A stretch of 64,000 nucleotides of DNA from an uncultured Christensenellaceae bacterium (GTDB lineage Bacteria > Bacillota > Clostridia > Christensenellales > CAG-314). Positions 9,227 through 56,285 of the stretch are shown here, piece after piece. The DNA lies in NCBI GenBank assembly GCA_910586905.1, contig CAJUIV010000001.1:205773-269772 (forward strand), written 5' to 3'. Position 1 is the first letter of the stretch. Each line of letters begins with the position of its first letter. A program made the position numbers and the translations under genes. The notes beneath the pieces are model-generated. The model was not told where the DNA came from, did no database searches, and saw nothing but the letters and a program-made list of their open reading frames with translations.

Positions 9227-11134
<1,908 letters not shown>

Positions 11135-11145
11135 GGAGGCATACG

Positions 11146-30647: not shown

Positions 30648-30676
30648 TTGTCAAACAACCTATAAAGTGTTAAAAT
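30648..30676 (+). promoter_or_regulatory. sigma-A-type promoter for the surface-locus operon
   Basis: TTGTCA (30648-30653), 17-nt spacer, TGtTAAAAT (-10 box at 30671-30676). It lies about 120 nt upstream of ATG 30797. Confidence 0.45.
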
Positions 30677-30796: not shown

Positions 30797-33700
30797 ATGA
30801 AAAAAAGATTTTTAAGCGTATTTATTTTAATTGTTGCTTTGTTTGCCATGACTGGCGGTTATTGTCTGTCAGCGTTCGCTGCGGCTTTCATAAATGCCGA
30901 CGTTAATATAAACAATCAACAGCAAATTTCGTCTTCTTTTGATTTTGATAAAAATGAAATCATAAAAAATTTAAAGTCCGATTTAATTTCCAATATCAAT
31001 AAAGATTTAATCAAAAATATAAAAGATTATAAATTAAGCGGTCCCGTAAACGCCGTTATAACGTTTTCCGACGGGTCGTTGGTTTCTTATTATAATTCTC
31101 TGAAATCGAAGCAATCTCTTTCAGACTTTTTGGCGGGCGGAGAAAGCGGCAATATAGCCGACAAATTGACGAAACGGCAAAACGATTTCGCCGCAAAGCT
31201 AAAAGAAAAAGGTTTGATTTCTTCCGTTAAATTTAACTATACTACGATTTTAGACGGTATTTACGTAAGCACTACTTTTGAAAACTTACGGGAAATCTGC
31301 AACATAGAGGGCGTTGCGAGGGTTACGGTATCGAATACTTACAAACCTGCCGTAGCGGTTAACAACCCCGTTAACGTTTATGATACGGGAATATTCAACA
31401 GCAGCGACGTAGACTACACGGGTAAGGGTACTGTGGTTGCTATTCTCGATACGGGTTGCGATTATACTCACTCGGCGTTTACTACTCATCAAGTGGTAAA
31501 TCCTCTGTATACGCGCGAAGATATCGCGCGTCTGCTTCCCAATACTTTGGCTTACGGTTACGACAATACTTTGGAAGACAGAGAAGTCTACTACGGAAAT
31601 ATAACCAAAGATAAAATAGTGTACGGCTACGATTACGCCGACCGCGACCCTGACGTTATGCCGTTTTCCAGCGAACACGGTACTCACGTCGCCGGTATTA
31701 TTGGCGGCAGCGACAGTACTATAACCGGCGTTGCGGTAGATACGCAGCTTGCTATAATGAAAGTTTTTTCGGACTATAAAGACGGCGCGGACGACGGCGA
31801 TATACTCGCGGCGTTGGACGACAGCGTACGTTTGGGCGTAGATGCGATAAATTTGAGTTTGGGAACTTCCTGCGGTTTTACACGCGAAGTGGACGAGAAA
31901 TATAAAAATGAAATTTACAATAGCATACAAGATGCGGGCATATCTTTAATCGTCGCCGCTTCAAACGATTACAGCAGCGCTTACGGTTCGGAGTTCGGTA
32001 ATACCAACAAAGTGGAAAATCCCGATTCCGCAACTGTAGGAGCTCCCTCTACGTACGAAGCCGCTCTTTCTGTAGCGTCGATAAACGGCAACAAAGACAA
32101 GTATCTGCTCGCCAACGGCGAAAAAGAAATATTCTTCCTCGAAGCATTTAACCAAAACGCAAAGGAACTGGATTTCTTCGAAATGATGGGCATAAACGAT
32201 AATGTCGAAAGTTACGAGTACGTAACCGTACCCGGATACGGCTTAAACGCAAGTTACGTAGGACTAGACGTTAAAGGAAAAATCGCTCTTGTTAAACGCG
32301 GCGACATCTCATTCGAGGATAAAGTTATGTACGCGCAAAATGCAGGCGCCAAAGCGATAATAATTTACAATAACGTATTCGGCGATATCGTTATGACGGT
32401 AGGTAATCACGTGGAAATCCCCGTTATTTCTATCGGTAAGGACGACGGCGATTATCTCGCGTCTCACGAAACGGGTACGTTAGTCCTCGACAAAAACAAT
32501 CAAGCGGGACCGTTTATGAGCGACTTCTCCAGTTGGGGTCCCACTCCCGACTTGAAATTGAAACCGGAAATAACCGCTCACGGCGGAAATATTTTATCCG
32601 CGATTCCCGGCGGCGGATACGATAAACTCAGCGGAACCAGTATGGCGGCGCCTAATATGTGCGGGATAGCTATACTTGTCCGTCAGTACGTAAAATACAA
32701 CTTCCCCGAATTGACTAATGCGACCGAAGTAAGAGATTTGGTAAATCGGCTTTGTATGTCTACGGCGACAATCGCAATGGATAAAAACGGCAATCCGTAT
32801 TCTCCGCGAAAACAAGGCGCGGGCATTGCAGATATCGCAAAGGCTACGAGTACGAATGCGTTTTTATTCGTAGACGGAACGGATAAAACCAAAATGGAGC
32901 TCGGCGACGACCCGAAGCGCAGCGGCGTTTACGAAATGACGTTAAAACTCAAAAACCTGTCCGATTCTCCCGTGAGTTACAAAATAGGCAATTACGTTAT
33001 GACGGAATCGCTTTCCGCAGATAAAAAATACGTTGCAGAAAAGGCGTATATGTTAGACGCCGGCGCGGAGTACTCCGTTAAAAACGGTTCGCTTTCGGGC
33101 GGAGTAGTAACGGTTAACGGCAAGGAAACGGCGGAAATAACGGTTAAGATAACCTTGTCCGGTGCCGATAAAGCGTATTTAAACGCAAGTTTTGCAAACG
33201 GTATGTACGTTGAAGGTTTTGTAACTTTCGATAATACCGACGCAAACGGAGTAGATTTGAACGCGCCTTTCTTGGCGTTTTACGGAGATTGGAGCGACGC
33301 TCCCATTTTCGATAAGGATTTTTACCTCGTCGAAACCGAAGCTCATAACAACGCGATAGACGACGAAGACAAAATAAAAGCCGACTACTACGCGACTACC
33401 CCCCTCGGCAAGTATTTCTACGACTATATTATTCCGATGGGCAGTTACCTTTACGAAATGGACGGCGATTACGACCCCATTCCCGCAACTGCGGAACACG
33501 CGGCGTTATCGTACTACCCCGATACTATAAACGGTATTTATTCCGTATTTACCGGATTGCTGCGCGGAGCCAAAGAGCTTAAAATAGAAATAACGGATAC
33601 CGCAACGGGTAAAGTAGTGTGGGATAAAACGGAATATAACTGTTATAAAGCGCACTACAGCGGAATTATGTATCCGTATATTTGTTCTATGGAACTCGAT

Positions 33701-36700
33701 ATGGCTAACTACGAAACGGGCGAGGTGTTCGGCGATAACAACGCTAACTACAAAGTTACGATGTCCGCCAAGCTCGACTGGGACGAAGGCGACCGCAACG
33801 TAAACGATACTTATAACTTTTCTTTCTATATAGACTACGAAGCACCTACGGTTACCGACGCGTCTTTCCGTACTAAGTATAACAATACGACCAAAAAGAA
33901 CGAATATTACGTGGACGTTACGGTATACGATAATCACTACGCTATGTCGCTCCGTCCGATAATTCTTTACAGACAAACCAAAGACGACGGTACCACGTCG
34001 CTGACGTATTCGCCTTTAAAAGAAAACGCTATCCCCGTTTATCAGGAAGAACGCGGCAAAGCAAGCGTTGTTACGGTAGAAATCACCGACTTTTTCGATA
34101 ACATTAAAAAATCCGATTCTCCCGAAGGAATCATATTCTACGTGGACGATTACGCGATGAACAGTAATATTTGCTACGTGCCTTTCCCCGAAACGAATTC
34201 TTCCGATTTGGATTTCGATTCCGAACACAAAACGTTAAATTTGGATATCGGCGACACAGTTGATTTGACTCGGTTTATAGTAGGCGCGAACGGACGCGAA
34301 GTGGTAAAAGATTATCTTTCCATGCTGACTTGGCGTTCGGACGACGACAGCGTTTCCGTTAACGGAGGAAAAATCGAAGCGTTAAAACAAGGAAGCGCGC
34401 GGGTTTACTTTACTTGCAGCGGGATGTCTTACAAAGTAAAAAATCCGCAAACCGGCGAAACTGAAACTAAGTACAACGAAAAATACGTAGACGTTAACGT
34501 AAGCGCCAACGTTTCGACTGACGACGACTCGTCGAAGGACAACGCGCTTTTGGAAAGCATAGCGTTTTCTCAGTACGATACGCTGTTTGCGTTTAACGGA
34601 GATATCGACCCTTCCGAAATCGGCAGCACGGGATCTACTCACTATTTCGACGGCGCGGGTAGTTTATCCTTTTATCCTTCCGAAAAAGTTAAACTGCATT
34701 ATTTGCTCAAACCTTGGAATATCGACCCCTCTCGTTATACTTTGAGTTGGATTTCGAGCAATCCCACTGTAGCTACCGTAGATTCTGACGGAGTGGTTAC
34801 CGGAATAGCGGAAGGCAGCAGTGTAATTTCCCTGCGTATAACCGTAGACGGCAGACCGTCCTCGATGTACGCTCGATGCGCGATAAAAATCAAAAGCGAA
34901 TTTATAATCGAAAACCGCGAATTGGTTGCTTACAAAGGTAACGGCGGACACGTAGTTATTCCCGACGATAAGGGTATTTTGTATATAGGTGGTTTTGCTT
35001 TCTGCCACTACAATTTGGATAACTCAAAAGACGTAGGCGACGGAAAATACGATATAGACCTTAAAAAAGAACCTATCGGCAACAATAACGTAGTAACGGT
35101 AGAAATTCCCGAAGGCGTGGAAGAAATACGTAAATTCGCATTTTATAACAGCAAACTGTTGGAAAGAGTAATACTTCCCTCGACGTTAAAGACTATCGAA
35201 GAACGCGCGTTTTACGACTGTAAAATTTTAACCAATATAAATTTAGATAACGTTAAAATAATTTCGGACTACACGTTCTACAACAATAAACTGTTGAATT
35301 GTAACGATTTGGGCGGAATCAATCTCGAAGGTGTAAACGTCATAGGCAGACACGCGTTCGACGGCTGCGAAAGTTTAACCAATATCAATCTTGCTGATTT
35401 ACGCCGCAGCGGTATGGCTGCTTTTGCGAACTGCACGCGTTTGACCGACGTGGTTCTGGGTAGATACGCGCGTATTTCAGACAGTATGTTTGAAAATTCC
35501 GCTATATCCAGCAGCACGAGCAAACCTCTTGAAATTTACAGCGACGTTATTCCCGACAAAGCGTTTTATCATTGCGAAAGGCTGCAAGCCGTAACGTTAC
35601 GCAGCGACGTAACGTATCTCGGCAACGAAGCTTTCCGCGGCTGTATCAATTTAACGCGCGTGTTATTCGAAGGCGATTGCGAACAGTTCGGTTCTTACGC
35701 ATTTGCCGATTGTACGGGACTGAAAAATATGACTCTGCCTTCGTGCCGTATAGTTTTCGGCGACGGAGTATACGCCAATTCGGGGCTTAACAGACTGATT
35801 TTCCGCTCGAATACCGTAATAACCGAAACCGGAGTGGGAGTATTTTTCGGACTTACGAATTTAACTTTCGCACAAGGACAGTCCAACCTCGATTACAGTA
35901 ACGGCATACTTTACGGCGACGCCGAACATACGAGTATCGTATTCGTATCTCCGTCGGCGGTTTTGGGCGATTTCGTTCTTCCCGACAGCGTAAAGACCAT
36001 AGCCGACAGCGCGTTCTCGGGCAATTCGACTTTAACGTCTTTTACCGTAACCGCAAATTCACAGCTTAAAAAAATCGGATACGGTGCGTTTTCGTATTGT
36101 GCTAATCTCGTAAAAGTTACTTTACCCGTAGGAAACGATATCGTTATCGACAGTTGCGCGTTTATAAACAGCGCGAAACTGGCGGAAATCAACTTGGAAG
36201 GCGTTAAAGCCGTTGGCGAGTACGCGTTTTATAAAACGGCGCTGCGCAATACTTTGACTAATCCTATTTCTCTGACTTGCGACGGCGTAATCATCGGAGC
36301 TTACGCGTTTGCGGAACTCTCGACTTTACAAGGCGTGCGTATAGGCGATAACGCGATAATCTGCGAATTCGCGTTTGCCGGTTCGGCGTTACGCAGTGTG
36401 GTCATGGGCAGTAACGGCGGTATTACGATAGGTGAATCCGCATTCGAAAAGTGTACCAAACTTGTAGATATCGATTTGAGTAAAGCTACGGGAAAACTGG
36501 GCGACTATGCGTTTTATCAATGTTCATCTCTTGTATCCGTAAGTCTTGATAATATAACGGAACTCGGCGAAGGCTGTTTCCAAGCTTGCTCCAAACTGAC
36601 TGCGGCTCGCAATACGAATAACGTAGTAACAGTAGGTCAAGGCGCTTTTATGGCGGACGGTATCATAGTGGAAGGCGTTTTGCAAATTTTGGCGCCGGTT

Positions 36701-38398
36701 CCGCTTGCCGGATTCGATTTCGACAGCGTAACGGAAATCGGCGATTTCGCATTCTTCTCTACAAACCTTACTTCCGTAAACCTTTCCAACGTAACGGCTT
36801 TGGGCGGTTCGGCGTTTGCGGATTGCGAACAGCTTGAAACCGTAACGTTCGGCGAAAAGCTTACGGTACTAAACGATTCGGCGTTCTTCGGATGTAAAAA
36901 TCTGCAAATCGGCGAAAACGATTTGAAAAACTTTGTTAAAATAGGTTCGGCCGTATTCTATCAGGCTAAGCTTCCTAAAACGTTGAATTTAGACAACGTT
37001 GAGGAACTGGGCGAACAAGCCTTTATCGAAGATACCAAAACTTGCAATAATCTCGAAAACGTAATCGCCCCCAAATTGACGTTTATCGGCAACCAAGCTT
37101 TCGGCGATTGTACAAAACTCAAAAGCATACAGGCTCCCAACTTAAAAACGGTAGAGTTCGGCGCGTTTTACAATACTGCTTTAACCGAATTGGAATTGAG
37201 CGACAAGTTCGAATCGGCAGGTTACGGTATGCTGGAAGGAGCCAAAAATTTCCGACGTTTTTACGTAACCGTAAACGATTCCAAACAAACCGAGTATAAG
37301 AGCGATAAATTTGTTTTGGACGGCGGCGTTTTGTATCTGATGATGGACAACGGATACTACGTGCTTTCCGCATATCCCGCGGCCAAAGAGAACACGGAGT
37401 ATACGGTATTAGAGAATACTGCAAGGATAGAATACCGCGCCGTATACGGAAACAAATATATTTCTACCGTAACTCTTCCCATTACGCTTAGATATATCGG
37501 AAACTACGCGTTTGCGGCTTGCGATAATTTATCTACGGTTATCTTCAAGTCTTACTACGCGCCCGTTCTCGAAGGAACGTTAAACAGCGATTTGGAAATT
37601 ACGCCGGATAATAAGGACGATTTCGCTAAATTCGACGTGCTGTACAAGTACGATTATTACTTTACCGCCGCGGGAGAAATTTCCATTTATTATCGAAACG
37701 CGTTTGTGTACTCTAACTTTATCGACGTTATAGGAAGCACCAAAGCTTCGAATATAACGTACGTAATCCCTTCGAACAACGAAGGATACGACAGCTTGCC
37801 GTATAAAGCGTTCTTCAACAAGTCCGAGACGAATTCCGGCGAAACGATGGGTAAATACGCTGTAGCGTTTGTCGACGCCGTTAATGCGTTATCGGATAAT
37901 ATAACGAGATTCGACAAAGAACTTATCGGCGAAGCGATAACGGCTTACAATTTCTTGATGGCTAATAGCGGCGAATTAAAATACGTAGAGCAGAGTTTGC
38001 TTAACAAATTTGCCGTTGCAAGACAAAATTATAACGTCGATTGCGTCAGATATTCAATAGACAAACTGTATGCAATGGACGCTACGGAATATTCTTATAA
38101 CGCTTTGCGTAACGCAACCCGCGCTTACGAAGAACTGACGGCGGAAGAAAAAGCTTTGGTAAGCAATTCTCAAATTCTATCCCAAAAGCTCGCGGAACTT
38201 AAAGCCGCAATGAACGTAAGCGACATAGACTTCGGCAAAGATTTCGGCGAATATCAAATAACTCCCGACCACGAAAGTAATCCCAATTTGGCTTTGATTA
38301 TTTCGCTGTCGTGCGTTGGCGGGGCTTTGGTTATTGCCGGCGCCGTCGTAACGACTATTTTGGTTCTTAGAAAAAAGAGGAACAACAATGAAAAATAA
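30797..38398 (+). CDS. giant cell-envelope S8 serine peptidase with I9 propeptide, PA insert, Ig-like domains, BspA-type LRR array and C-terminal TM anchor
   Basis: 2533 aa with a signal peptide. The subtilase triad is Asp218 (AILDTG, 31448-31450), His294 (EHGTHVAG, 31676-31678) and Ser615 (GTSMAAP, 32639-32641). A PA-like insert lies between Asn390 and Ser615. Big_2-like segments include NPTVATVDSDGVVTGIAEGSS. The C-terminal helix is LALIISLSCVGGALVIAGAVVTTILVL followed by RKKRNNNEK. Confidence 0.9.
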   Translation: MKKRFLSVFILIVALFAMTGGYCLSAFAAAFINADVNINNQQQISSSFDFDKNEIIKNLKSDLISNINKDLIKNIKDYKLSGPVNAVITFSDGSLVSYYNSLKSKQSLSDFLAGGESGNIADKLTKRQNDFAAKLKEKGLISSVKFNYTTILDGIYVSTTFENLREICNIEGVARVTVSNTYKPAVAVNNPVNVYDTGIFNSSDVDYTGKGTVVAILDTGCDYTHSAFTTHQVVNPLYTREDIARLLPNTLAYGYDNTLEDREVYYGNITKDKIVYGYDYADRDPDVMPFSSEHGTHVAGIIGGSDSTITGVAVDTQLAIMKVFSDYKDGADDGDILAALDDSVRLGVDAINLSLGTSCGFTREVDEKYKNEIYNSIQDAGISLIVAASNDYSSAYGSEFGNTNKVENPDSATVGAPSTYEAALSVASINGNKDKYLLANGEKEIFFLEAFNQNAKELDFFEMMGINDNVESYEYVTVPGYGLNASYVGLDVKGKIALVKRGDISFEDKVMYAQNAGAKAIIIYNNVFGDIVMTVGNHVEIPVISIGKDDGDYLASHETGTLVLDKNNQAGPFMSDFSSWGPTPDLKLKPEITAHGGNILSAIPGGGYDKLSGTSMAAPNMCGIAILVRQYVKYNFPELTNATEVRDLVNRLCMSTATIAMDKNGNPYSPRKQGAGIADIAKATSTNAFLFVDGTDKTKMELGDDPKRSGVYEMTLKLKNLSDSPVSYKIGNYVMTESLSADKKYVAEKAYMLDAGAEYSVKNGSLSGGVVTVNGKETAEITVKITLSGADKAYLNASFANGMYVEGFVTFDNTDANGVDLNAPFLAFYGDWSDAPIFDKDFYLVETEAHNNAIDDEDKIKADYYATTPLGKYFYDYIIPMGSYLYEMDGDYDPIPATAEHAALSYYPDTINGIYSVFTGLLRGAKELKIEITDTATGKVVWDKTEYNCYKAHYSGIMYPYICSMELDMANYETGEVFGDNNANYKVTMSAKLDWDEGDRNVNDTYNFSFYIDYEAPTVTDASFRTKYNNTTKKNEYYVDVTVYDNHYAMSLRPIILYRQTKDDGTTSLTYSPLKENAIPVYQEERGKASVVTVEITDFFDNIKKSDSPEGIIFYVDDYAMNSNICYVPFPETNSSDLDFDSEHKTLNLDIGDTVDLTRFIVGANGREVVKDYLSMLTWRSDDDSVSVNGGKIEALKQGSARVYFTCSGMSYKVKNPQTGETETKYNEKYVDVNVSANVSTDDDSSKDNALLESIAFSQYDTLFAFNGDIDPSEIGSTGSTHYFDGAGSLSFYPSEKVKLHYLLKPWNIDPSRYTLSWISSNPTVATVDSDGVVTGIAEGSSVISLRITVDGRPSSMYARCAIKIKSEFIIENRELVAYKGNGGHVVIPDDKGILYIGGFAFCHYNLDNSKDVGDGKYDIDLKKEPIGNNNVVTVEIPEGVEEIRKFAFYNSKLLERVILPSTLKTIEERAFYDCKILTNINLDNVKIISDYTFYNNKLLNCNDLGGINLEGVNVIGRHAFDGCESLTNINLADLRRSGMAAFANCTRLTDVVLGRYARISDSMFENSAISSSTSKPLEIYSDVIPDKAFYHCERLQAVTLRSDVTYLGNEAFRGCINLTRVLFEGDCEQFGSYAFADCTGLKNMTLPSCRIVFGDGVYANSGLNRLIFRSNTVITETGVGVFFGLTNLTFAQGQSNLDYSNGILYGDAEHTSIVFVSPSAVLGDFVLPDSVKTIADSAFSGNSTLTSFTVTANSQLKKIGYGAFSYCANLVKVTLPVGNDIVIDSCAFINSAKLAEINLEGVKAVGEYAFYKTALRNTLTNPISLTCDGVIIGAYAFAELSTLQGVRIGDNAIICEFAFAGSALRSVVMGSNGGITIGESAFEKCTKLVDIDLSKATGKLGDYAFYQCSSLVSVSLDNITELGEGCFQACSKLTAARNTNNVVTVGQGAFMADGIIVEGVLQILAPVPLAGFDFDSVTEIGDFAFFSTNLTSVNLSNVTALGGSAFADCEQLETVTFGEKLTVLNDSAFFGCKNLQIGENDLKNFVKIGSAVFYQAKLPKTLNLDNVEELGEQAFIEDTKTCNNLENVIAPKLTFIGNQAFGDCTKLKSIQAPNLKTVEFGAFYNTALTELELSDKFESAGYGMLEGAKNFRRFYVTVNDSKQTEYKSDKFVLDGGVLYLMMDNGYYVLSAYPAAKENTEYTVLENTARIEYRAVYGNKYISTVTLPITLRYIGNYAFAACDNLSTVIFKSYYAPVLEGTLNSDLEITPDNKDDFAKFDVLYKYDYYFTAAGEISIYYRNAFVYSNFIDVIGSTKASNITYVIPSNNEGYDSLPYKAFFNKSETNSGETMGKYAVAFVDAVNALSDNITRFDKELIGEAITAYNFLMANSGELKYVEQSLLNKFAVARQNYNVDCVRYSIDKLYAMDATEYSYNALRNATRAYEELTAEEKALVSNSQILSQKLAELKAAMNVSDIDFGKDFGEYQITPDHESNPNLALIISLSCVGGALVIAGAVVTTILVLRKKRNNNEK
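34910..37580 (+). repeat. BspA-type leucine-rich repeat array (LRR_5-like) inside the S8 protein
   Basis: There are dozens of ~23-25-aa units of the form xIPxxVxxIGxxAFxxCxxLxxVxL, for example IPEGVEEIRKFAFYNSKLLERVILPSTLKTIEERAFYDCKILTNINL. Confidence 0.8.
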
Positions 38399-39476
38399 AT
38401 TATTGCTCATTCTGGCGATAACGTTTGTCGCTGCGGCTGCGCTTTTGGCGTTTACCGCCTGCAACACAAACGAACAATCGCTCGACGGTTTGTATATCGT
38501 AACGTTCGAGTTTAACGGCGGTATACTCGATACTGGAGCTACTAACGTTGAAGGGAGCATTTTTCACGCTTACGAACCCAATCAGTACGCCATCGATATA
38601 AACGCCAAATTTCAGTTTAGGCGTACCGGTTACAAATTCGACGGTTGGTTTAAGGATGAAAATCTGACGGAAGAGTGGAACTTCGAGACCGACAGAGTTA
38701 CGCAGAATTTAACGTTATATGCAAAGTGGAGTTCGGAAATCGTTTATAGTTATACGCTGTATTTGGTTGACGGAACCGAAACCACTAAACTGGGCAGTTA
38801 CAACGTGGAAGCGAACGCCAAGTTAGACGATAACCGCGGATACGGTACGTCTTTGAGTATTTACGACAAAACGTTTTTGGGATATTATTCCGACAAAGAA
38901 TTGACGAAGGAGTGGAACGGCGATTTTACTCATCCCGGAGGAAAAACGAGTTTGGATATTCCCGTGTACGTAAAAGCTATGGACGGTGTGTGGAGTTTCG
39001 TATCTAACTACGACGAACTCAAAAAAGCGTTAGGCTCGAATATCTGGCTTACGGATAACGTCGATTGCGGAGGATCGGAATTGTTTTTCGGCGATTCGCA
39101 AAGAATTTTCGGCGGCAAGATTAACGGAAACGGATTCGTAATAAGCAATTTCGTAATTCAAAAAAACGGCTCGCTAAGAAATCCGGAATACACTTTATTC
39201 GGAAACTTGAGTTCGACGGCTAAAATCGAAAACGTCGGATTTACCGAAGTTCAAATAAAAATCGACGCTTCTAACGTTCCGGGACTTGTTATAAAAACGG
39301 CTGCGCTTGCCGTTTCGGCGGAGGAAGGCTGCGTTATAAACAAAGTATCAGTCAGCGGCACGTACGAAAATAATAGCGCTATAGACGTTTCGTCGGTTAT
39401 AAATAATGCGTTTTATCAAAATTCGACCGTTCAGCCCAATGAATTTACGGCGAATTTCGTTGCAAAAGTAAGTTAG
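38388..39476 (+). CDS. InlB B-repeat (Listeria-Bacteroides repeat) lipoprotein
   Basis: 362 aa with the lipobox LAFTAC. The B-repeat is FEFNGG...GYKFDGWFKDENLTEEWNFETDRVTQNLTLYAKW. The C-terminal FGGKINGNGFVISNF-type segment is common in beta-helical adhesin passengers. The start overlaps the S8 stop by 11 nt. Confidence 0.8.
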   Translation: MKNKLLLILAITFVAAAALLAFTACNTNEQSLDGLYIVTFEFNGGILDTGATNVEGSIFHAYEPNQYAIDINAKFQFRRTGYKFDGWFKDENLTEEWNFETDRVTQNLTLYAKWSSEIVYSYTLYLVDGTETTKLGSYNVEANAKLDDNRGYGTSLSIYDKTFLGYYSDKELTKEWNGDFTHPGGKTSLDIPVYVKAMDGVWSFVSNYDELKKALGSNIWLTDNVDCGGSELFFGDSQRIFGGKINGNGFVISNFVIQKNGSLRNPEYTLFGNLSSTAKIENVGFTEVQIKIDASNVPGLVIKTAALAVSAEEGCVINKVSVSGTYENNSAIDVSSVINNAFYQNSTVQPNEFTANFVAKVS

Positions 39477-39494: not shown

Positions 39495-42023
39495 ATGAAA
39501 AAATTTAGCAGAATTGCGATTTTTGTTTTAGCGGTTATGATGGTCGTTTTGGCGAGCGGACTGATGAGCTGCAAAAAACAGATTATCGACAACGAAAATA
39601 CTCGTTTGGTTCTTGCCATAGGCGAATTGGACGGAGTATTCAATCCGTTTTACAGCTCGTCCGCAACCGACGGTGAAATCGTAGGAATGACGCAGCTTTC
39701 TATGTTTACCACCGATATAAACGGCAAAGTGGCGTTCGGCGAAGACGAAGCGTGCGCGGTGTTGGATTACGAGTCCGTTCCCCAAGGTTCGGGCGACGAC
39801 CAAACTACGACTTACAGATTCGTTCTTAAAAACAATCTTAAGTTCAGCGACGGCAAACCTCTTACGATGAGAGACGTTTTGTTTAACATTTACGTCTATC
39901 TCGACCCCGTTTATACAGGCAGTTCCACAATGTATTCTACGGAAATTGTAGGACTTGCGGAATACCGTACTCAATCTAGAAATCCCAACGAACAGGATTC
40001 GTTTGAAAACGACTACGAAACGTTGGCTTGGGAAAGACTGGAAAGACTTGCCGAAGAATTACAAAACGTGTACGATAACAACAGCGGCAAAGTTTTGACG
40101 GACGCAGAAGTTAAAGCCGGCTTGCAGGAAACGATAGATTTGTTTAAAGGATTGGCGGAAGCGGAGACCAATCCCGAACAAAAGAAGGAACTGTTAAAAT
40201 ACGGTACTTTGATTGAAGACTACGAATCTACCAAAAAGACGTTTTTGAACGAATTGAAAAGAGATTATCAGCTTGCCAAAGGCACCGCCGAAGATATCAA
40301 CTTCCTTGACGGTAAAGCAAAACTTACAACCGATACCGAAGCGTTTTTATATAACGAGGGATTTATCACTTGGAATAAGAAAGACGAAGTATTCGAATAC
40401 GCTTTCGGAGAAAAAAGTAAAGACTGGACCGAAGAACAAGCTATAAACGCCGTTTACGAAAGCTACGTTCCTAACGACGTTCCGAGCGTGGTTTTTGGTT
40501 CTCAAACTACAAACGAATTGCTAGACGCGTTCACTGCGGCGGAAAAGAAAGCGTATTTCGATAGTCTCGGAGAACAGGATAAAATCACCAACGTAAGCGG
40601 TATAACGTTTGCAAACCGTACCGAATCGGTAACTGTAAACAACAAAAATTATGCTGCGCCTACTTATAACGCCGACGGAAGCGTTGCAACGGGAAACGAA
40701 GTTTTACAAATCGTCATCAAAAAAGTAGACCCGAAAGCTATTTGGAATTTCGCGTTTGCTATCGCTCCTATGCATTACTATTCTAACGCAACGGAAATGG
40801 AAAAATTCGATTATGTCGACCATTTCGGAGTATCTTTCGGCGACCCCGATTTTATGAATAACTCTATAAAAAACACCGATAAAATCGGTGTTCCGGTAGG
40901 AGCGGGTCCTTACAAAGCTACCACGAGAACGGGTGGCGGAACTGTAAACGCGGGTTCGTTTAAAGAAAATAACGTCGTGTATTTTGAGCGAAACGAAAAC
41001 TTTTTGTTCCCTGCAAAAATAAAATACGTCAACTATCAGGTAGTAGATACTAAAATGATGCTCGACAGCTTATTCGCAGGAGATATACATTTTGTCGAAC
41101 CCGCTTGCAGACAGGAAAACATAGATATAATAAACGCGAATAAGGGTAAAGGTTTCGACCGTTCGTACGTTATGACCAACGGTTACGGTTATATCGGCAT
41201 CAACGCCGAAAAAGTACCCAGTCTTGCAGTACGTCAAGCAATAATGCACGCTATCAACACCAAACTTTGCACCGACTATTACGCCGGATACTCTTACAAT
41301 ATCTATAGACCTATGACGCGCGCCTCTTGGGCGTATCCTAAGGAAACCGACGAACTCGGACAATACTACAAGTATGACGACACGGGCACAACAAGCGAAA
41401 ATTTGGTAAAAGCTGCCGGTTACGTTAAAAACAGCGACGGTATTTACCAAAAAGGCGACGACGTTTTGTCGTATATCTTTACCGTTGCGGGCGATTCTAA
41501 CGACCACCCCGCGTACAGCGCTCTTCAAAACGCTATGATTATTTTGAACGCTCACGGATTCGATATCCGCGTACAAAAAGATATCAACGCTTTAAAGAAA
41601 CTCAACAGCGGCGATTTGACCGTATGGGCTGCCGCTTGGGGCAGCGGCGTAGACCCCGATATGTATCAAGTTTATCACATTGATTCTCTTGCCGGTTCTA
41701 CTTCCAACTGGGGTTACCGCGCAATCCGCAGAAACGCCAACCACAAGTATGATACCGAACTCGGAATCGTAGAAAATCTGTCGAAGTCTATCGACCTTGC
41801 AAGACAAACTCTCGACGAAGACGCAAGAAAAGCCGAGTACGCAACGGCGTTGAATTTGGTAATGAGTCTTGCGGTTGAACTTCCTACGTATCAAAGAAGC
41901 GACTTGTACGCTTATAACACTAAAATAATCGACGTAACGACCCTTACTCCCGAAAACGAACTTACTCCGTTTAACGGACCTATCGGAAAACTTTGGGAAT
42001 TGAGCCTTAAGGAAAACGTATAG
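39495..42023 (+). CDS. ABC transporter substrate-binding lipoprotein, family 5 (OppA/DppA-like), enlarged
   Basis: 842 aa with the lipobox GLMSC. Family-5 SBP segments include YRFVLKNNLKFSDGKPLTMRDVLFNIY, NVVYFERNENF and GDLTVWAAAWGSGVDPD. AAGGAG lies upstream. Confidence 0.85.
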   Translation: MKKFSRIAIFVLAVMMVVLASGLMSCKKQIIDNENTRLVLAIGELDGVFNPFYSSSATDGEIVGMTQLSMFTTDINGKVAFGEDEACAVLDYESVPQGSGDDQTTTYRFVLKNNLKFSDGKPLTMRDVLFNIYVYLDPVYTGSSTMYSTEIVGLAEYRTQSRNPNEQDSFENDYETLAWERLERLAEELQNVYDNNSGKVLTDAEVKAGLQETIDLFKGLAEAETNPEQKKELLKYGTLIEDYESTKKTFLNELKRDYQLAKGTAEDINFLDGKAKLTTDTEAFLYNEGFITWNKKDEVFEYAFGEKSKDWTEEQAINAVYESYVPNDVPSVVFGSQTTNELLDAFTAAEKKAYFDSLGEQDKITNVSGITFANRTESVTVNNKNYAAPTYNADGSVATGNEVLQIVIKKVDPKAIWNFAFAIAPMHYYSNATEMEKFDYVDHFGVSFGDPDFMNNSIKNTDKIGVPVGAGPYKATTRTGGGTVNAGSFKENNVVYFERNENFLFPAKIKYVNYQVVDTKMMLDSLFAGDIHFVEPACRQENIDIINANKGKGFDRSYVMTNGYGYIGINAEKVPSLAVRQAIMHAINTKLCTDYYAGYSYNIYRPMTRASWAYPKETDELGQYYKYDDTGTTSENLVKAAGYVKNSDGIYQKGDDVLSYIFTVAGDSNDHPAYSALQNAMIILNAHGFDIRVQKDINALKKLNSGDLTVWAAAWGSGVDPDMYQVYHIDSLAGSTSNWGYRAIRRNANHKYDTELGIVENLSKSIDLARQTLDEDARKAEYATALNLVMSLAVELPTYQRSDLYAYNTKIIDVTTLTPENELTPFNGPIGKLWELSLKENV

Positions 42024-42042: not shown

Positions 42043-43377
42043 ATGGTAAAATATATTGTAAAAAGAATATTGCTGTCGATATTGATTTTGTTGGGCGTAT
42101 CTCTTATAATCTACGTTTTGGTGCGTTTGATGCCGGCGGACTTTTTGGAAACCAAGTACGCCGAGCAGCTTAAAATGAAAACCATTACGCAGGAACAAAT
42201 CGACCAAATGAAAAAAGACGCGGGCGTTTGGATGCCCGACGCGTTTTTGACGATTGAGTTGGGCGACGGCGGCGAACATGCGGGCGAAAAACTTACCAAA
42301 GACACAAAGTCCGCAAACTACGATCGCGTTCAAAACGGTTTGATGAATTTCAGCGAATTGTGTTTCGGTAACTACTATAACGAAAAACGCACCGTACGTT
42401 TGGAAATCAAAGAAAATAAAGAAGCGATATTATACGAAATCAACGAAGAAGGAGTCGCCGAATCTATAGCGAGCGGCAACGCCGTATTCGACGAAGATGT
42501 GTACGACGCAGTCGTTTTGAAGCTTGACGGCGCGGACGTAAACTCTATTGTGGATTACAGAGTTGCGACCGGCGGTGAAAAGGCCGGAGCGGTATTCGTG
42601 TACTACTTTAAATGGCTTGGCAATATGTTTCAAGGTAATTTGGGCGAATCGTTTATTCATCATAAGCCCGTTGCCCAAGTTATTTCGGAACATATGTGGG
42701 TATCGTTTATCATTTCTCTTATAGCTACGGTACTGCAGCTTATAATCGCGATACCTATGGGTATAACGAGCGCAACTCATCAGTATTCGGTGCGCGATTA
42801 TACTGTTACCGTTATAACGATGATAGGTATTTCGTTGCCATCTTTCTTCTTTGCGGCGATATTGGTTAAAATCTTTTCCAGTTGGTTAGGATGGTTCCCC
42901 GCCTCGGGACTTGTAAGCGGAGGCTCCAACGCCGGCGGATTTATGGGATTTTTGGATATGGCTTGGCACTTGGTATTACCTATGACCGTGCTTGTGGTTT
43001 TGTCCATTGGCGGACTTATGCGTTACACGCGCACGAATATGCTGGAAGTTTTGAACAGCGACTATATCCGTACCGCGCGCGCAAAGGGTTTGTCCGAAAA
43101 GAAAGTAATTTACGTTCACGCTTTCCGCAACACTATGATTCCTCTTATGACTCTTGTTGCGGGTATTCTGCCTTCGCTGTTCGGCGGAGCGATGATAACG
43201 GAAGAAGTATTTAGTATAGACGGTATAGGAAGACTTGCTTATAAAGCTTTAAGTCAAGGCGATTTACCTTTTATAATGGGTTATAATATGTTTTTGGCGG
43301 TGCTTACCGTCATAGGTACATTGCTGTCTGATATTATGTACGCGGTTGTAGACCCGCGGGTAAAAATTACTAAATAA
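42043..43377 (+). CDS. ABC peptide-type transporter permease (OppB/DppB-like) with a long extracytoplasmic insert
   Basis: 444 aa. The N-terminal TM is MVKYIVKRILLSILILLGVSLIIYVLVRLMP. The conserved permease loop is YIRTARAKGLSEKKVIYVHAFRNTMIPLMT. About 180 aa lie between TM1 and TM2. Confidence 0.9.
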   Translation: MVKYIVKRILLSILILLGVSLIIYVLVRLMPADFLETKYAEQLKMKTITQEQIDQMKKDAGVWMPDAFLTIELGDGGEHAGEKLTKDTKSANYDRVQNGLMNFSELCFGNYYNEKRTVRLEIKENKEAILYEINEEGVAESIASGNAVFDEDVYDAVVLKLDGADVNSIVDYRVATGGEKAGAVFVYYFKWLGNMFQGNLGESFIHHKPVAQVISEHMWVSFIISLIATVLQLIIAIPMGITSATHQYSVRDYTVTVITMIGISLPSFFFAAILVKIFSSWLGWFPASGLVSGGSNAGGFMGFLDMAWHLVLPMTVLVVLSIGGLMRYTRTNMLEVLNSDYIRTARAKGLSEKKVIYVHAFRNTMIPLMTLVAGILPSLFGGAMITEEVFSIDGIGRLAYKALSQGDLPFIMGYNMFLAVLTVIGTLLSDIMYAVVDPRVKITK

Positions 43378-43387
43378 CGGTGATATT

Positions 43388-44764
43388 ATGGCAAAAAAAG
43401 ATATAGAAAAACTTAATAATATTACCGACGAATACAGCGAACTTATAACTCCGTCCGACAAACCGAAAAGCGTGGAAGAAATGATTTCCGCTTTGGAAAA
43501 ATCCGCTGACGCTTTGGAAAAACAATCTAAGAAGCTGGAAACGGCAAGCGAAACCGTCAAAAAACAAACCTCGGTAAAAAGAGAAAGAAAAAATCCTCTT
43601 GCCGATTTGGATATGTCTCTCTTCGATAAAGACGCGGTCGTTTCCGATAATTCTTTGCCGGAAAGCGGAATGTCTTTCAGTGAAGAAGTTTTGGCGGCTG
43701 CCGAGAATAACGCTTCGTCGTCTGCCGAAAGCACCGCTACGGCAGTGGCGGATACGACCGAACCCGACCAGCAAGTTCACTACAAGGAAATGACACCGGG
43801 GCAGATGGTAGCGCGCAGATTTTTCCGCTCGCGCCTGTCTCTTGTAGGATTGATAATGATAGTTGCTTTGTTTTTCTTCGCTTTTGCAGGTCCTCCGATT
43901 TTAAAAATTTTCGGATATAACTGGGGTGAAATAGAACCGGATAATTCCGGGGCGGTAAAACGTTCGGGCGACTGGATTGAAGCGGAAGTAAACGGAGAAA
44001 AAGTTTCGGCGTATCAGTTCGTTTATCATAACGTAGAAATCAATTCGTTCGCCGGCGTATCGTCCAAGCACTTTCTCGGTACGGACGACAAAGGTATGGA
44101 CGTTTTCGTACGTTTGATGTACGGCGGACGCGTATCTCTTACGCTCGGATTCGTAGTCGTTATTTTGGAAACGCTCATAGGCATTATTTTGGGCGGTATA
44201 TCCGGATATTTCGGCGGATGGGTAGACCAAATTATAATGCGTATTGTAGATATCCTTAACTGCGTGCCTACATTGCCGTTGCTGCTTATTGCTTCGATGG
44301 TTATCGAATCTTGGCAAATAGACCCTCAGATGCAGATTTATTATCTTATGATGATAATGACTCTGTTCGGTTGGGCGGGAACTGCGCGCATGGTTCGCGG
44401 ACAGATATTGTATTTAAGAGAACAAGAGTACATAGTCGCCTGCGAAGTGATGGGAATTCCCGTTTGGCGCAGAATATTAAAACATCTTATTCCCAACATT
44501 ATGCCGCAGCTGATAGTTTCTATGACTCTCGGTCTCGGCAGCATCATTTTGTACGAATCTACTTTAAGCTATCTCGGATTAGGCATACCGATGCCGTATG
44601 CGGCGTGGGGAACGATGATTTCGGCATCTACCGACCCCGTAACTATGGCGTTTTATCCCAATTTGTGGATACCCGCAGGTTTGCTTATCGTAATTGCCGT
44701 TTTGGGTTTCAACTTTGTCGGCGACGGGTTGCGCGACGCAATGGACCCCAAAGCAAAGAGGTAA
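43388..44764 (+). CDS. ABC peptide-type transporter permease (OppC/DppC-like) with an N-terminal extension
   Basis: 458 aa. The conserved loop is YIVACEVMGIPVWRRILKHLIPNIMPQLIV. The first ~145 aa are charged and low-complexity, with no TM helix. Confidence 0.9.
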   Translation: MAKKDIEKLNNITDEYSELITPSDKPKSVEEMISALEKSADALEKQSKKLETASETVKKQTSVKRERKNPLADLDMSLFDKDAVVSDNSLPESGMSFSEEVLAAAENNASSSAESTATAVADTTEPDQQVHYKEMTPGQMVARRFFRSRLSLVGLIMIVALFFFAFAGPPILKIFGYNWGEIEPDNSGAVKRSGDWIEAEVNGEKVSAYQFVYHNVEINSFAGVSSKHFLGTDDKGMDVFVRLMYGGRVSLTLGFVVVILETLIGIILGGISGYFGGWVDQIIMRIVDILNCVPTLPLLLIASMVIESWQIDPQMQIYYLMMIMTLFGWAGTARMVRGQILYLREQEYIVACEVMGIPVWRRILKHLIPNIMPQLIVSMTLGLGSIILYESTLSYLGLGIPMPYAAWGTMISASTDPVTMAFYPNLWIPAGLLIVIAVLGFNFVGDGLRDAMDPKAKR

Positions 44765-44768
44765 TACC

Positions 44769-46100
44769 GTGAAAAAAGTAAAAGAAAAAAATCCCAATAC
44801 GCTCACTTTAAAGGAAAGCCGCGCGATAATAAAAAGCAATTTAAAGGAGATGAAACGTTTGGAAAAAGCCAAGCGCGTCAAAGTTTCCTCCGATAGCTTT
44901 ACTACGCAAATGCACAATCCCGATAACGTGTTGGAAGTCGAAAATTTGCAGACGTATTTTTATACCGACAACGGCGTTGTAAAATCGGTAAACGGAATAT
45001 CTTTCGACGTACCAAAAAATTCCATAGTAGGTTTAGTCGGCGAAAGCGGCTGCGGCAAATCCGTTACGAGTTTATCGATAATGCAGCTGGTTCAAGCTCC
45101 TCAAGGACAGGTTGTGGGCGGCTCGATTCGTTTCGATACGCAGGACTTCGTTTTGGACGAACGCGGCAAAAAAATTCCCGTGTACGAAAAAAACGTTAAC
45201 GGCGAAATCGTATATCGTGAAAAAACCGATAAAAAGGGCGAAAAGATTTTGGATAAAAACGGCTCGCCAGTTACCGAACCAGTGCAAGCGACTACCGAAG
45301 ACGGAGTTCCTTTATTCGAAACGGAAGACAGAGTTTACGATATAGTTAAAATGCCCACGCACGATATGTGCCGTATTCGCGGAAAAGATATATCTATGAT
45401 TTTCCAAGAACCGATGACGAGTCTCAATCCGGTATTTACGGTCGGATATCAAATAGAGGAAGTCGTTTATTTGATAAATCCGTTGGCGACGAAAGAGCAA
45501 GCTCGAAAAAAAGCAGTAGAAATGCTGACGTTGGTAGGTATACCGATGCCGGAAACCATTATAAACTACTATCCTCACCAACTTTCCGGCGGTATGCGCC
45601 AACGCGTTATGATTGCCATCGCGCTTGTAGGAAACCCCAAACTGATAATTGCGGACGAACCTACTACGGCGTTGGACGTTACAATTCAAAGTCAAATTTT
45701 ACAGCTTATAAAAAAGGTTCAAAAACAGTGCGAAGCCTCGGTGGTTTTGATTACTCACGATTTGGGCGTCGTTGCGGAAACGGCGGATTACGTAGTGGTT
45801 ATGTATGCCGGTAAAATTGTGGAAAAGGGAACCGTATTTGAAATTTTCGACAATCCTCTGCATCCGTATACGAAAGGTATACAAAAAGCTAAACCCACTT
45901 TTGAAACAGGCGCGGATGCCGAATTGTACAGTATCCCCGGGGTTGTACCCAATCCTATAAATATGCCGAACGAGTGTTTGTTTAAAGACCGTTGCGGCGA
46001 GCGCTGCGGTCAATGCGAGGGAGAGTATCCCGAAGAAATAAAAATTACGGATACGCACAGCGTTTTCTGTCATTTATATAAAAATAAGAGTAAAAAATGA
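44769..46100 (+). CDS. ABC peptide-type transporter ATP-binding protein (OppD-like) with an internal insertion
   Basis: The start is moved to GTG 44769, with AAAGAGG 7 nt upstream. Walker A is GESGCGKS, the signature is LSGGMRQR, and Walker B is [12 protein letters not shown]. It has a Cys-rich Opp-type C-terminal tail. A ~60-aa insert lies between the Walker A region and MIFQEP. Confidence 0.9.
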
Positions 46101-47221
46101 GTAAAAAAACATCGAAACAAAATATCCCGACTGAATCCGTTGCCGAAGAAACGTCTGTGGCTCCCGAGCAGGAAGCCGTTACGACGGAAGCGCCCTTGAC
46201 GAATTTGTCCGAATTGGATTTCGACCCGAATAAGGATTACATTTTGCGCGTACGCGATTTAAAACAGTATTTTCCCGTGGCTAAAAATCTTGCGGGTAAG
46301 GTTACGTCTTGGCTGCGCGCGGTCGACGGGGTTTCTTTTAACCTCGAACGGGGAAAAACAATCGGTATAGTTGGCGAAAGCGGCTGCGGAAAAACCACTC
46401 TCGGACGAACGATTTTGAGATTGTACGATATTACCGAAGGTTCGGCGGTTTACGTTGACGAACAAGGAAAAGAGTTTGAACTTGCGGCTTTAAAAAAGAA
46501 AGATATACAGTCTCTGCGCACCGAATTGCAGCTTGTTTTTCAGGACCCGTATTCCTCTCTGCCGCCAAGAATGACTGTAGGAGAAATAATCGGCGAAGCG
46601 GTAAAAGTTCACAAAATCGTACCAAAAGAAGAAGTACACGAATACGTTTTAAACGTTATGCAGCGCTGCGGTTTACAGCGTCATTACTACGACAGATATC
46701 CTCACGAATTTTCCGGCGGGCAGCGTCAGCGTATTTGTATAGCGCGCGCATTGGCAGTTAAACCGAAATTGGTTGTTTGCGACGAACCGGTATCCGCGTT
46801 GGATGTATCTATACAGGCTCAGGTTATAAATTTGCTTAAAAAACTGCAACGCGAAGAAGGCATTTCGTATATGTTTATTTCTCACGATTTGTCAGTTGTA
46901 AAGTACATAAGCGATACTATTGCCGTTATGTATTTGGGAAATATCGTGGAAACGGGTACCACTCAAGATATTTGTTCGAACGCATTACATCCGTATACTC
47001 AGGCTTTGTTTTCGGCAGTGCCTGTTGCAAACCCTCACAAAAAGGCGGTTCCCGAATCGCTAGACGGCGAATTGCCCAGTCCGGCAAATCCCCCGAAAGG
47101 GTGCAAATTCCATACTCGATGCAAATACTGTATGGATAAGTGCGGCGAAGAACTTCCGGCTATGAAAGAAGTATCTAAAGGCCACTTTGTGGCTTGCCAC
47201 TTGTTTGACGATGAAAAATAA
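46097..47221 (+). CDS. ABC peptide-type transporter ATP-binding protein (OppF-like)
   Basis: 374 aa with an ATGA overlap with the preceding gene. Walker A is GESGCGKTT, the signature is FSGGQRQR, and Walker B is LVVCDEPVSALD. The C-terminal Cys motif is GCKFHTRCKYCMDKC. Confidence 0.9.
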   Translation: MSKKTSKQNIPTESVAEETSVAPEQEAVTTEAPLTNLSELDFDPNKDYILRVRDLKQYFPVAKNLAGKVTSWLRAVDGVSFNLERGKTIGIVGESGCGKTTLGRTILRLYDITEGSAVYVDEQGKEFELAALKKKDIQSLRTELQLVFQDPYSSLPPRMTVGEIIGEAVKVHKIVPKEEVHEYVLNVMQRCGLQRHYYDRYPHEFSGGQRQRICIARALAVKPKLVVCDEPVSALDVSIQAQVINLLKKLQREEGISYMFISHDLSVVKYISDTIAVMYLGNIVETGTTQDICSNALHPYTQALFSAVPVANPHKKAVPESLDGELPSPANPPKGCKFHTRCKYCMDKCGEELPAMKEVSKGHFVACHLFDDEK

Positions 47222-47474
47222 GAAACAAAACAAACCGAAAACCGTCTATAAGGAAGATACGGGCGAAACGATATATTCGATGGCGGGTCTGGAAGGAAAA
47301 ACTCCCGAAGAGCTAGACCGTCTTGCGGAAGAAAAGAAAAAACGCGTTGCCGTAACCCGTAAAGAACGCCGCGCTATGATACGGGCGGCTTTCGAAGTGT
47401 ACGGTCCCAAATTTCTTATTATCATAATGTCGTTTTCGCTTGTGGCGGTTTTGCTGTATTTGTGGTTGAGTTGA
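47211..47474 (+). CDS. small tail-anchored membrane protein, unknown function
   Basis: 87 aa from ATG 47211, overlapping the OppF stop by 11 nt. The N-terminal 60 aa are Lys/Glu-rich. A single C-terminal helix FLIIIMSFSLVAVLLYLWL follows. Confidence 0.5.
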   Translation: MKNKKQNKPKTVYKEDTGETIYSMAGLEGKTPEELDRLAEEKKKRVAVTRKERRAMIRAAFEVYGPKFLIIIMSFSLVAVLLYLWLS

Positions 47475-50500: not shown

Positions 50501-50701
50501 GACGCGGACGCTTTCGCATTGTATTATAAAGGATTTTTCGGCGACGACGCAAACGTAAACGGATTTGCGTTTAAAATTCAGGACGGACGCGTCGTATCCG
50601 TAACGGTTTGTTTCGATAACGCAACGGCCACGGCGACTCTTGGTGATTTCGGTACGACGGTTGTCCCCGTCGATAAAGATAACGGGACTACGGAGGAATA
50701 A
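47549..50701 (+). CDS. giant lipoprotein with five tandem ~76-aa repeats, unknown function
   Basis: 1050 aa with the lipobox LFAAC and GGAGAAAAA upstream of the ATG. I recognised no catalytic motif. Confidence 0.8.
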   Translation: MKKRFILVLALVALVSLLFAACEKIDEVAISVPETVELQVGKKVDWKDYVTVKINGEKVENPEITWKLTSGNENAGGICRYTIEFVHHGQTYSRDGVVRYTDVSIVVAEQTLKVGSPVDFAGKVTVKINGETRNPVISSVLKSGNPNEVGDCVYTISFTENGQTYTAEGVVHFRKAVVNVVVLSQNVEYGDDETDVEYISSKVQLAITVEGETVDSEITWKLGDNQVSEPDVNCKYIISFEHNGEKYEAEVSVLFQSPDVRFDVEIQHLNVGDDLDWNGHVKVSVNGQEIENPEITWVKIRGDENQNGSCVYLISYEYKGETYTCEGTVRFAEPQVTINAIDQYLLVGGTIEWNEYVTVRIDGVVQKNPQLQVTLKSGTENAVGTCVYTLTFTYRDKPYSTEAKVVFVDSGMDPGDVDALDAILAKGVDDYTGYTMRYHFYEVGKEQYYISETDKVTLGAISNYYIDYTDVNFNDNVQQVVTNEMKYYLSVNGAANELCYYRDMGKETPEWKYTKFTIPNDEASYTRLLPMAFLFGDLESGITKAYFIKLDTNVYEVKEALLGEVAEKLFGYDEESDTYTRILLETDGYNITKITGYYTTDYDTADSQGNAVTVSVDSVVELSWSDFNDTAVEIPEATEYVPPREDLPEYVNPENGADLTSEQQNSLTEALNKVYQSITSGYTNDKGEMYYFYSGLLKLTGNLSYTEERELARYKDWIISDITTSYYCLKQTDTTCDVWMMISDKGDFIKYPGYEATLTDFATYFAITEFGFTADMFGFADGKYVVKPDKLDAVKEKISQVIPLSNFTNFELLTFTLKLDSSNNVTEWYMLADCTTVDKDVFYWQLTFNYSDFDVTEINLPDEIVGDLTDLDEARKEQVTEAFNADYSNATVTDCVNGSVMYYVGDKITVKGSVLNDAGYIEKFTDEYVIKDGNYFEILGGNETAITKAKFEEFVVCFNFGIIDVTKVKYDAVRDTYYIAAGDTDADAFALYYKGFFGDDANVNGFAFKIQDGRVVSVTVCFDNATATATLGDFGTTVVPVDKDNGTTEE
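47633..48775 (+). repeat. five tandem ~76-aa domain repeats, each with a conserved Cys
   Basis: The units run VKINGEKVENPEITWKLTSGNENAGGICRYTIEFVHHGQTYSRDGVVRY, VKINGETRNPVISSVLKSGNPNEVGDCVYTISFTENGQTYTAEGVVHF, and so on (aa 29-409). Confidence 0.75.
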
Positions 50702-55773: not shown

Positions 55774-55790
55774 CAGTAAAATTTAAATTT

Positions 55791-55826
55791 CGGAGTGCCG
55801 GCATAACGTCGCGCACTCCGTTTTTT
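55791..55826 (+). terminator. rho-independent terminator ending the ten-gene operon
   Basis: CGGAGTGC-14 nt-GCACTCCG followed by TTTTTT, 18 nt after stop 55773. Confidence 0.85.
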
Positions 55827-56285
55827 ACTTTTTAAACGTTTGTAGTATCTTAATGCCGGTAATCGCCTGTTCCAATGCAACGAATAAAATAACAATCGAT
55901 AACTTTCCGTCAGCATAGGACTGTTTTTTTGAAGTCCCGATTATAACAAAAATTACGTTTATTAAGGTTGAAACGTTAAAATGAATAAAAATATTGCGTA
56001 TTGGCAAATTTTTTTATTGTATTTAAGTGAAATATTTGACAACGTTTGTTCGATTATAGTAAAATTATCGTATATTTAGCCTGAAATTTAATATGTAATG
56101 TATAATAGACAAGTATTTTATACTAATGGTGCTATTTTATCGGGATATTATCGCAACGCTTTGTTGAAATGGCTAAAAATAAGCCGTTTGAACGAGCGTT
56201 CTTTTTATTTAAAAACGGTTTGTAATTTTATCGCGTTTTCGCGTTAAGATAGAGAGTAAGATTTATTAGGAAGGGAGGAAATATT

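Follow-up and report, generated by a model that had tools for sequence, protein, structure and literature searches.

The 64,000-nucleotide (nt) stretch of DNA analysed here, hereafter the window, comes from contig CAJUIV010000001.1 of an uncultured Christensenellaceae bacterium. Its forward strand carries a gene for a surface protein of 2533 amino acids (aa) in which a protease of the subtilase type (S8) is joined to a long array of leucine-rich repeats (LRR). Directly downstream lie the genes of an Opp/Dpp-type ATP-binding cassette (ABC) importer. This operonic linkage of the protease to an atypical importer is the most informative fact about the locus, and it is absent from an earlier, model-made reading of the same DNA (the original prediction). 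The gene and the parts of its product, which ends in a transmembrane (TM) anchor, are as follows:

30797..38398, + strand: S8-LRR gene for the surface protease-LRR protein of 2533 aa
30797..30883, + strand: signal peptide, residues 1-29, with a KKR n-region, a hydrophobic core and a cleavage site between AFA and A
30884..31420, + strand: pro-region, residues 30-208, probably an I9-like propeptide (family profile; the alignment to the SGO_0316 family begins at residue 82)
31421..32824, + strand: S8 catalytic domain, residues 209-676 (Pfam Peptidase_S8, PF00082, E 1.2e-42)
31448-31450, 31676-31678, 31964-31966 and 32639-32641, + strand: catalytic codons D218, H294, N390 and S615, respectively
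32222..32455, + strand: PA domain, residues 476-553, an insert of the S8 domain flanked by N390 and S615 (Pfam, E 3.6e-17)
32930..33271, + strand: fn3_5 domain, residues 712-825 (Pfam, E 7.9e-14)
33272..34921, + strand: beta-sandwich/immunoglobulin (Ig)-like stalk, residues 826-1375, including a Big_2-type domain with its core at 1317-1344 (AlphaFold, Foldseek, Pfam)
34958..37540, + strand: BspA-type (LRR_5) array of 30 repeats, residues 1388-2248 (position-specific scoring matrix (PSSM) scan, Pfam, AlphaFold, Foldseek)
37577..37906, + strand: conserved post-LRR alpha/beta region of no known family, residues 2261-2370
37907..38212, + strand: helical region, residues 2371-2472 (AlphaFold), analogous by position to the PrtP H domain
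38288..38368, + strand: C-terminal TM anchor, residues 2498-2524, conserved in homologues
38369-38395, + strand: basic tail RKKRNNNEK, directly after the TM anchor

The subtilases of MEROPS clan SB are recognised by the order Asp-His-Ser, by the motifs DTG, HGTHV and GTSMA around these residues and by an oxyanion Asn. All of these features are present in the window protein, with D218 in AILDTG, H294 in EHGTHVAG, N390 in AASND and S615 in GTSMAAP, exactly where the original prediction had placed them. The triad and the oxyanion residue are invariant in a 31-homologue alignment. Furthermore, the three catalytic motifs were all recovered by regular expression in 71 of the 76 complete genome-encoded homologue open reading frames (ORFs) found in the 80 retrieved loci (numbered with the prefix L).

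As in the class of the cell-envelope proteinases, the PA domain is located between the catalytic Asn and Ser and the fn3_5 domain directly follows the S8 domain. Residues 201-875 align to the solved structures of C5a peptidase, SpyCEP and cell-envelope proteinases (E 1e-64 to 5e-58). The PA insert aligns with that of C5a peptidase, and the alignments to 7edd, 3eif and 5xya run through both PA and fn3_5. The S8 core of the cell-envelope-proteinase/C5a-peptidase type, with a PA insert between N390 and S615 as described earlier, is upheld by the Pfam profiles and by the solved-structure matches. Its designation as a 'processive' protease found no support.

The original prediction also stated that the triad and an I9 propeptide look intact. 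The first part stands; the second can be kept only tentatively, as Pfam Inhibitor_I9 gave no match on the pro-region even at E<=10 and the best PDB match of the pro-region family profile was a weak one (cucumisin propeptide 4yn3_B, E 0.024 over 38 residues). The signal peptide of the window protein, with its AFA site, is of the signal peptidase I type, unlike that of most family members. An alignment of N-termini (L019, L027, L030 and L037-L078) revealed that most of them have a lipobox Cys in the signal peptide (e.g. LPAC, LAAC, TACA). Such precursors would carry a lipid anchor at the N-terminus in addition to the C-terminal TM anchor.

Beyond the protease head, the AlphaFold model of residues 821-1410 (mean predicted local distance difference test (pLDDT) 71, confident for 1010-1375) consists of strings of beta-sandwich domains, for which Foldseek returned generic Ig-like arrays including SpyCEP 5xxz_B. 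Big_2 scored 22.4 bits on the whole protein versus a cut-off of 22.8, and 28 bits on the isolated segment, in agreement with the Ig-like (Big_2-type) segments proposed earlier.

The LRR array is covered by Pfam LRR_5 (PF13306) in eight stretches (E 5.5e-119). The PSSM scan located 30 units, mostly spaced by 21-27 residues, and none outside residues 1388-2248. Two beta-hairpin modules, at ~1666-1728 and ~2154-2211, break the array. The AlphaFold model of residues 1371-2533 (31 homologues, mean pLDDT 89.3) comprises LRR solenoid segments, the two hairpin modules, the alpha/beta region, helices at 2371-2472 and the terminal TM helix. Its best PDB matches in Foldseek are LRR_5 structures of the BspA type (4fs7, 4gt6, PcpA 4cp6, 4h09 and TpLRR). 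Tandem PF13306 repeats of ~23 residues within a solenoid fold characterise BspA-type LRR proteins and both are found here. The long LRR_5 array and the helical region of the original prediction can be recognised in the model. The post-LRR region and the helical tail match no known domain.

The single C-terminal TM helix followed by a Lys/Arg tail was likewise described correctly: residues 2498-2524 precede RKKRNNNEK, and no LPXTG motif occurs near the C-terminus of the window protein. Anchor and basic tail are conserved in the 31-sequence alignment. A TM segment lies within the last 60 residues in 69 of the 76 complete homologue ORFs; among the other seven, several have acidic tails, with the hydrophobic segment lying further upstream. 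Only one of the 76 contains an LPXTG-like string. These signals suggest a topology in which the N-terminus is exported, the C-terminal helix resides in the membrane and the basic tail remains inside. The protease head would then be the most distal part of the molecule, with the LRR array and the helical region close to the membrane.

The coding region is one unbroken reading frame. An assembly join or frameshift between the protease and LRR halves, at 34.2-34.9 kb, had been named as a finding that would refute the original prediction, and it is ruled out: the GC content is even across the gene, including the junction, the identical 2533-aa protein is recorded on four contigs, and the junction is continuous in at least 120 full-length homologues. 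These cluster representatives share 49-73% identity with the window protein over 95-100% of the query, measure 2497-2642 aa and show the same Pfam set. A HMMER search with the family-specific stalk (residues 830-1400) gave matches at ~830-900 in proteins of ~2400-2700 aa. Shorter matches (1285-1794 aa) are contig-end fragments, because all of them stop abruptly within the Ig or LRR region and have no anchor. Given the common architecture of the homologues, the invariant triad and the number of stretches in which a relative is encoded, the fusion is old, fixed and widespread rather than an assembly chimera. The word 'chimera' of the original prediction is therefore misleading for an architecture which is common to so many genomes.

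A side observation concerns gene calling. At 987-8657 of locus L081, the public call of the protease homologue is only 1880 aa long and lacks the S8 part. A tblastn search revealed one continuous frame spanning residues 2-2506, and the short call probably reflects faulty gene calling and not a pseudogene.

Conservation is distributed unequally along the protein. Mean pairwise identity reaches 0.73-0.78 in the protease, the most conserved part, and falls to 0.43-0.55 in the LRR blocks, the lengths of which are almost invariant (281-309 and 407-451 aa). The non-structural (surface) positions of the LRRs have a mean conservation of only 0.31-0.58. The exception is the first two repeats, which adjoin the Ig domain and are well conserved; a search for a conserved ligand patch on the LRR surface found none. 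Because the array length is nearly fixed while the surface positions drift, a scaffold or docking platform is the most likely role of the array, in preference to a receptor for a single conserved target. Such a pattern would be expected of a geometric scaffold, or of a docking surface which co-evolves with its partners, and agrees less well with a receptor for one conserved external target. The earlier idea that the LRRs steer proteolysis to one specific protein would thus sit poorly with the drift of the surface.

The genes downstream of the protease are separated by short gaps or overlap:

38388..39476, + strand: Flg_new (Listeria-Bacteroides repeat) lipoprotein, 362 aa, the start of which overlaps the protease stop codon by 11 nt
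39495..42023, + strand: Opp/Dpp-type substrate-binding lipoprotein (SBP_bac_5), 842 aa
39855-40874, + strand: insertion in the binding protein, ~320 aa relative to solved OppA-type proteins
42043..43377, + strand: OppB-like permease, 444 aa, with a ~180-aa loop after TM1 (42148-42681)
43388..44764, + strand: OppC-like permease, 458 aa, with a 145-aa N-terminal extension (43388-43822)
44694..46100, + strand: OppD-like ATPase, the true start probably lying downstream of the listed TTG
46097..47221, + strand: OppF-like ATPase
47187..47474, + strand: small protein with a C-terminal hydrophobic helix, likely starting at ATG 47211 (~87 aa)

The neighbours comprise a binding protein of the SBP_bac_5 family, two permeases (BPD_transp_1) and two ATPases (ABC_tran with oligo_HPY), which is the component set of an Opp/Dpp (PepT-family) importer. 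With its enlarged binding protein and extended permeases, this importer is atypical. The 120 closest homologue clusters of the binding protein (at least 60% identity) all measure 830-923 aa. The N-terminal extension of the OppC-like permease is charged and probably helical. No Pfam match was obtained for the insertion of the binding protein, for the OppB-like loop or for the OppC-like extension, and the small ~87-aa protein belongs to no Pfam family. Outside its repeat, the Flg_new lipoprotein contains no known domain.

The linkage was followed by tblastn of the window neighbour proteins against the 80 loci. The full Flg_new/Opp set stands beside the protease gene in 65 of them, and the Flg_new lipoprotein is syntenic in 67. 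When only loci flanked by 9 kb or more on each side are counted, the Opp cluster adjoins the protease in 47 of 49. Two gene orders occur, both with all genes on one strand. In closer relatives (35 loci) the protease is followed by Flg_new and then by Opp, which is thus downstream; in relatives at 36-41% identity (30 loci) the order is Flg_new, Opp, small ORF and protease, which places Opp upstream. The small ORF directly follows the second ATPase in 58 of the 83 loci; where the alternative order applies, it lies between the ATPase and the protease gene. In the reciprocal test, which started from homologues of the binding protein, an S8-PA-fn3_5-Big_2-LRR_5 gene was found on three of three contigs. 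Since the linkage survives the rearrangement of gene order, protease and importer are likely to be functionally coupled, and the conservation of the linkage points to nutrient acquisition.

Some genomes carry a second protease-LRR copy without an adjacent Opp cluster (L035 and L057, both from the same metagenome-assembled genome (MAG) SIG664; L049; L070). At L070, a large antisense LRR-rich gene is also present upstream. In the window, the importer is followed at 47549-61525 (+) by a run of large surface proteins which is not syntenic with the protease in other loci. It comprises a 1050-aa lipoprotein with ~90-aa internal repeats and no Pfam family, a 1690-aa lipoprotein with seven Flg_new repeats, a 1571-aa Flg_new protein which has a signal peptide and, like the protease, ends in a TM anchor, and a 174-aa lipoprotein. 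On the upstream side, a link to sporulation was considered and dropped: the SpoIIE and hexapeptide transferase genes are not syntenic in other loci.

Taken together, the protein is rather probably a PrtP-like nutritional cell-envelope proteinase which would supply a dedicated peptide importer. We base this view on the plan of head, stalk and anchor, which matches PrtP, and on the conserved linkage to the importer. The exported protein would lose its pro-region and be kept in the membrane by the C-terminal TM helix. The S8-PA-Fn3 head would be presented distally, on top of the Ig-like stalk, the fixed 30-LRR array and the helical bundle. The protease would be co-transcribed with the Flg_new lipoprotein, the Opp/Dpp-type importer and the small membrane protein. 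Extracellular proteins of dietary, host or microbial origin would be cut into oligopeptides, which the co-encoded binding lipoprotein and the permeases would then import; we infer proteolysis, and the transport of peptides rather than metals, from these comparisons. The peptides may sustain carbohydrate-poor gut Clostridia with small genomes (Christensenellales-like, including Pumilibacteraceae). The LRR array could serve as a rigid wall-spanning scaffold, or as a platform on which substrates, or lipoproteins encoded in the same operon, would dock.

Several observations weigh against this reading. The nearest solved homologues of the family are specific virulence proteases and not general caseinases. 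For the transporter proteins, all NCBIfam equivalog models (Opp4A/B/C and others) remained under their cut-offs, and SBP_bac_5 systems of the same fold also carry nickel or opines. Three CodY boxes were found in the window versus 7.9 expected, none of them in the promoter region, and no other nutritional regulatory signal was found.

The close relationship to C5a peptidase and SpyCEP favours a different function, in which a host- or competitor-directed enzyme would cleave one specific protein (a chemokine, an immunoglobulin or a mucin-associated factor), the LRRs would adhere to or capture the target and the Opp system would be only loosely related. The resemblance of the LRR_5 region to the HupY/LrrG adhesin model, to PcpA and to BspA-type structures is in line with this proposal, as is the almost exclusively gut-associated origin of the carriers. 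However, the tight Opp linkage persists through the rearrangement of gene order, the LRR surface is poorly conserved although the hosts span mouse, human, chicken, rabbit and ruminant, and the number of repeats is constant, unlike in many adhesins. We therefore consider a specific protease and adhesin unlikely. The protease might instead act on the cell's own surface by processing giant lipoproteins and TM-anchored Flg_new/LRR proteins, to which the LRRs would bind, with Opp recycling the fragments. Giant Flg_new or LRR_5 surface proteins are indeed abundant in the window and in related loci, but these giant neighbours are not syntenic with the protease and only the 362-aa Flg_new lipoprotein is, which makes such maturation or shedding improbable.

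In Firmicutes, Opp systems import signalling peptides. In line with this background, and with the way in which a secreted protease and an importer of the peptide type stay together across the loci, the protease might mature an exported peptide (a pheromone, a bacteriocin or a lipoprotein-derived signal) for re-import by a dedicated Opp. Yet the conserved module contains no RRNPP-type regulator, no precursor peptide gene and no bacteriocin genes, and an enzyme of 2533 aa with a PA domain and a long stalk far exceeds the known leader peptidases in size. We regard a role in peptide signalling as very improbable. The nutritional proteinase can also be extended to a more ambitious proposal, namely that the module works in Gram-positive gut bacteria as a single machine for 'protein utilisation', the parts of which would be in physical contact, with an LRR scaffold of invariant length that would dock the importer lipoproteins. 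Its members would be the S8-LRR protease, the Flg_new lipoprotein, the insertion-bearing binding protein, the extended-loop permeases and the small tail-anchored protein, and peptides would be handed directly from the protease to the transporter. This extension is doubtful at present. If true, the machine would be a functional analogue of the Bacteroidetes Sus-like utilisomes made of entirely different parts.

Relatives of the protein are encoded in at least 576 confirmed stretches of species-representative genomes (one genome per GTDB species). Almost all carriers are MAGs from the gut of humans, mice, chickens, rabbits and ruminants, labelled as Clostridia, Christensenellaceae or Oscillospiraceae. 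Some genomes with this plainly clostridial operon have inconsistent labels (Prevotella sp., Corallococcus sp., Staphylococcus sp. CAG:324 and Anaeroplasma; L009, L012, L062 and L006/L007/L011), which are probably taxonomic mislabels. The only cultured carrier among the matches listed is Pumilibacter intestinalis CLA-AA-M10, which has the operon at L020 (48% identity). Its family, the Pumilibacteraceae (GTDB f__CAG-552, order Christensenellales), is described as lacking the ability to use many carbohydrates and as poor in carbohydrate-active enzymes (CAZymes).

The window is chromosomal and contains recF-gyrB-gyrA, tRNA synthetases, tatD and spoIIE. The genes recF, gyrB and gyrA lie together at 7527-13632, and the window shows a steady rise in cumulative GC skew. 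The locus probably lies on the leading strand and fairly near the replication origin. Scans for regulatory elements gave little. The best match to a sigma-70-like promoter is a tentative one:

30648..30676, + strand: TTGTCA-17-TAAAAT with TG (weak evidence)

Promoter-like sites are not in excess in the gene region (34 versus 30.5 in shuffles), the terminator scan gave a count not above shuffles, and the Rfam scan of the whole window returned no matches.

The feeding of the abundant, barely cultured Christensenellales-like gut Clostridia is largely obscure, and the few isolates are slow growers with a narrow range of carbohydrates. An operon of protease and importer offers a concrete, testable route by which proteins or peptides could be acquired in this clade, and its presence in Pumilibacter intestinalis CLA-AA-M10 makes experiments feasible. 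The public names of the family proteins, 'leucine-rich repeat protein' or 'hypothetical protein', hide what is probably a major gut protease family. For BspA-type LRR arrays within enzymes, the locus furthermore supplies a first functional context, and it draws attention to an Opp system with large unexplained insertions.

Among known systems, PrtP (lactocepin) of lactococci and lactobacilli and its Opp importer are the closest in plan. PrtP is built from a head, a stalk, a helical domain and an anchor (PMC7783315). The window protein has the same S8 domain with a PA insert, Fn3-like domains, a long stalk and, ahead of the anchor, a helical domain, and the functional logic of an extracellular protease feeding an oligopeptide ABC importer may be shared as well. 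It differs in its anchor, which is a TM helix and not an LPXTG/sortase signal, in the 30-repeat LRR_5 array inserted in the stalk and in having no adjacent PrtM-type maturase: no rotamase-type domain of a PrtM-type (PpiC/PrsA-like) lipoprotein was present among the scanned neighbours within the window. A further difference lies in the genes themselves. In Lactococcus lactis, prtP and opp are not known to be linked; here protease and importer form one conserved operon, and the binding protein of the importer measures 842 aa and its permeases are extended.

C5a peptidase (ScpA/ScpB) and SpyCEP are the best matches among solved structures over the S8-PA-Fn3 part (E ~1e-64). In contrast to the window protein, these virulence factors are LPXTG-anchored, measure 1100-1650 aa, act on narrow substrates and have no LRR. 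The NCBIfam SGO_0316/SGO_0317 family model covers residues 82-844 only and scores 272.9 bits versus a cut-off of 1400, which places the S8-LRR protein, as judged by this model, outside the curated streptococcal LPXTG peptidase family. The BspA-type LRR_5 surface proteins (Tannerella BspA, PcpA, group B Streptococcus HupY/LrrG and the Bacteroides/Faecalibacterium structures 4fs7 and 4gt6) share the type of repeat and the fold. None of the matched structures has a protease domain, whereas here the array is a fixed-length internal module of an enzyme; its score with the HupY/LrrG model (NCBIfam NF047961, 106.8 bits versus a cut-off of 1250) shows that the LRR part is not an equivalog. The literature search returned nothing relevant on an S8 and LRR_5 fusion, on this operon or on protease/Opp work in Christensenellales. 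The parts themselves are familiar, and the surprise is a moderate one: the novelty, which can be tested in a cultured strain, consists of the LRR insertion of fixed length, the anchoring by a TM helix and the close operonic association with an atypical importer.

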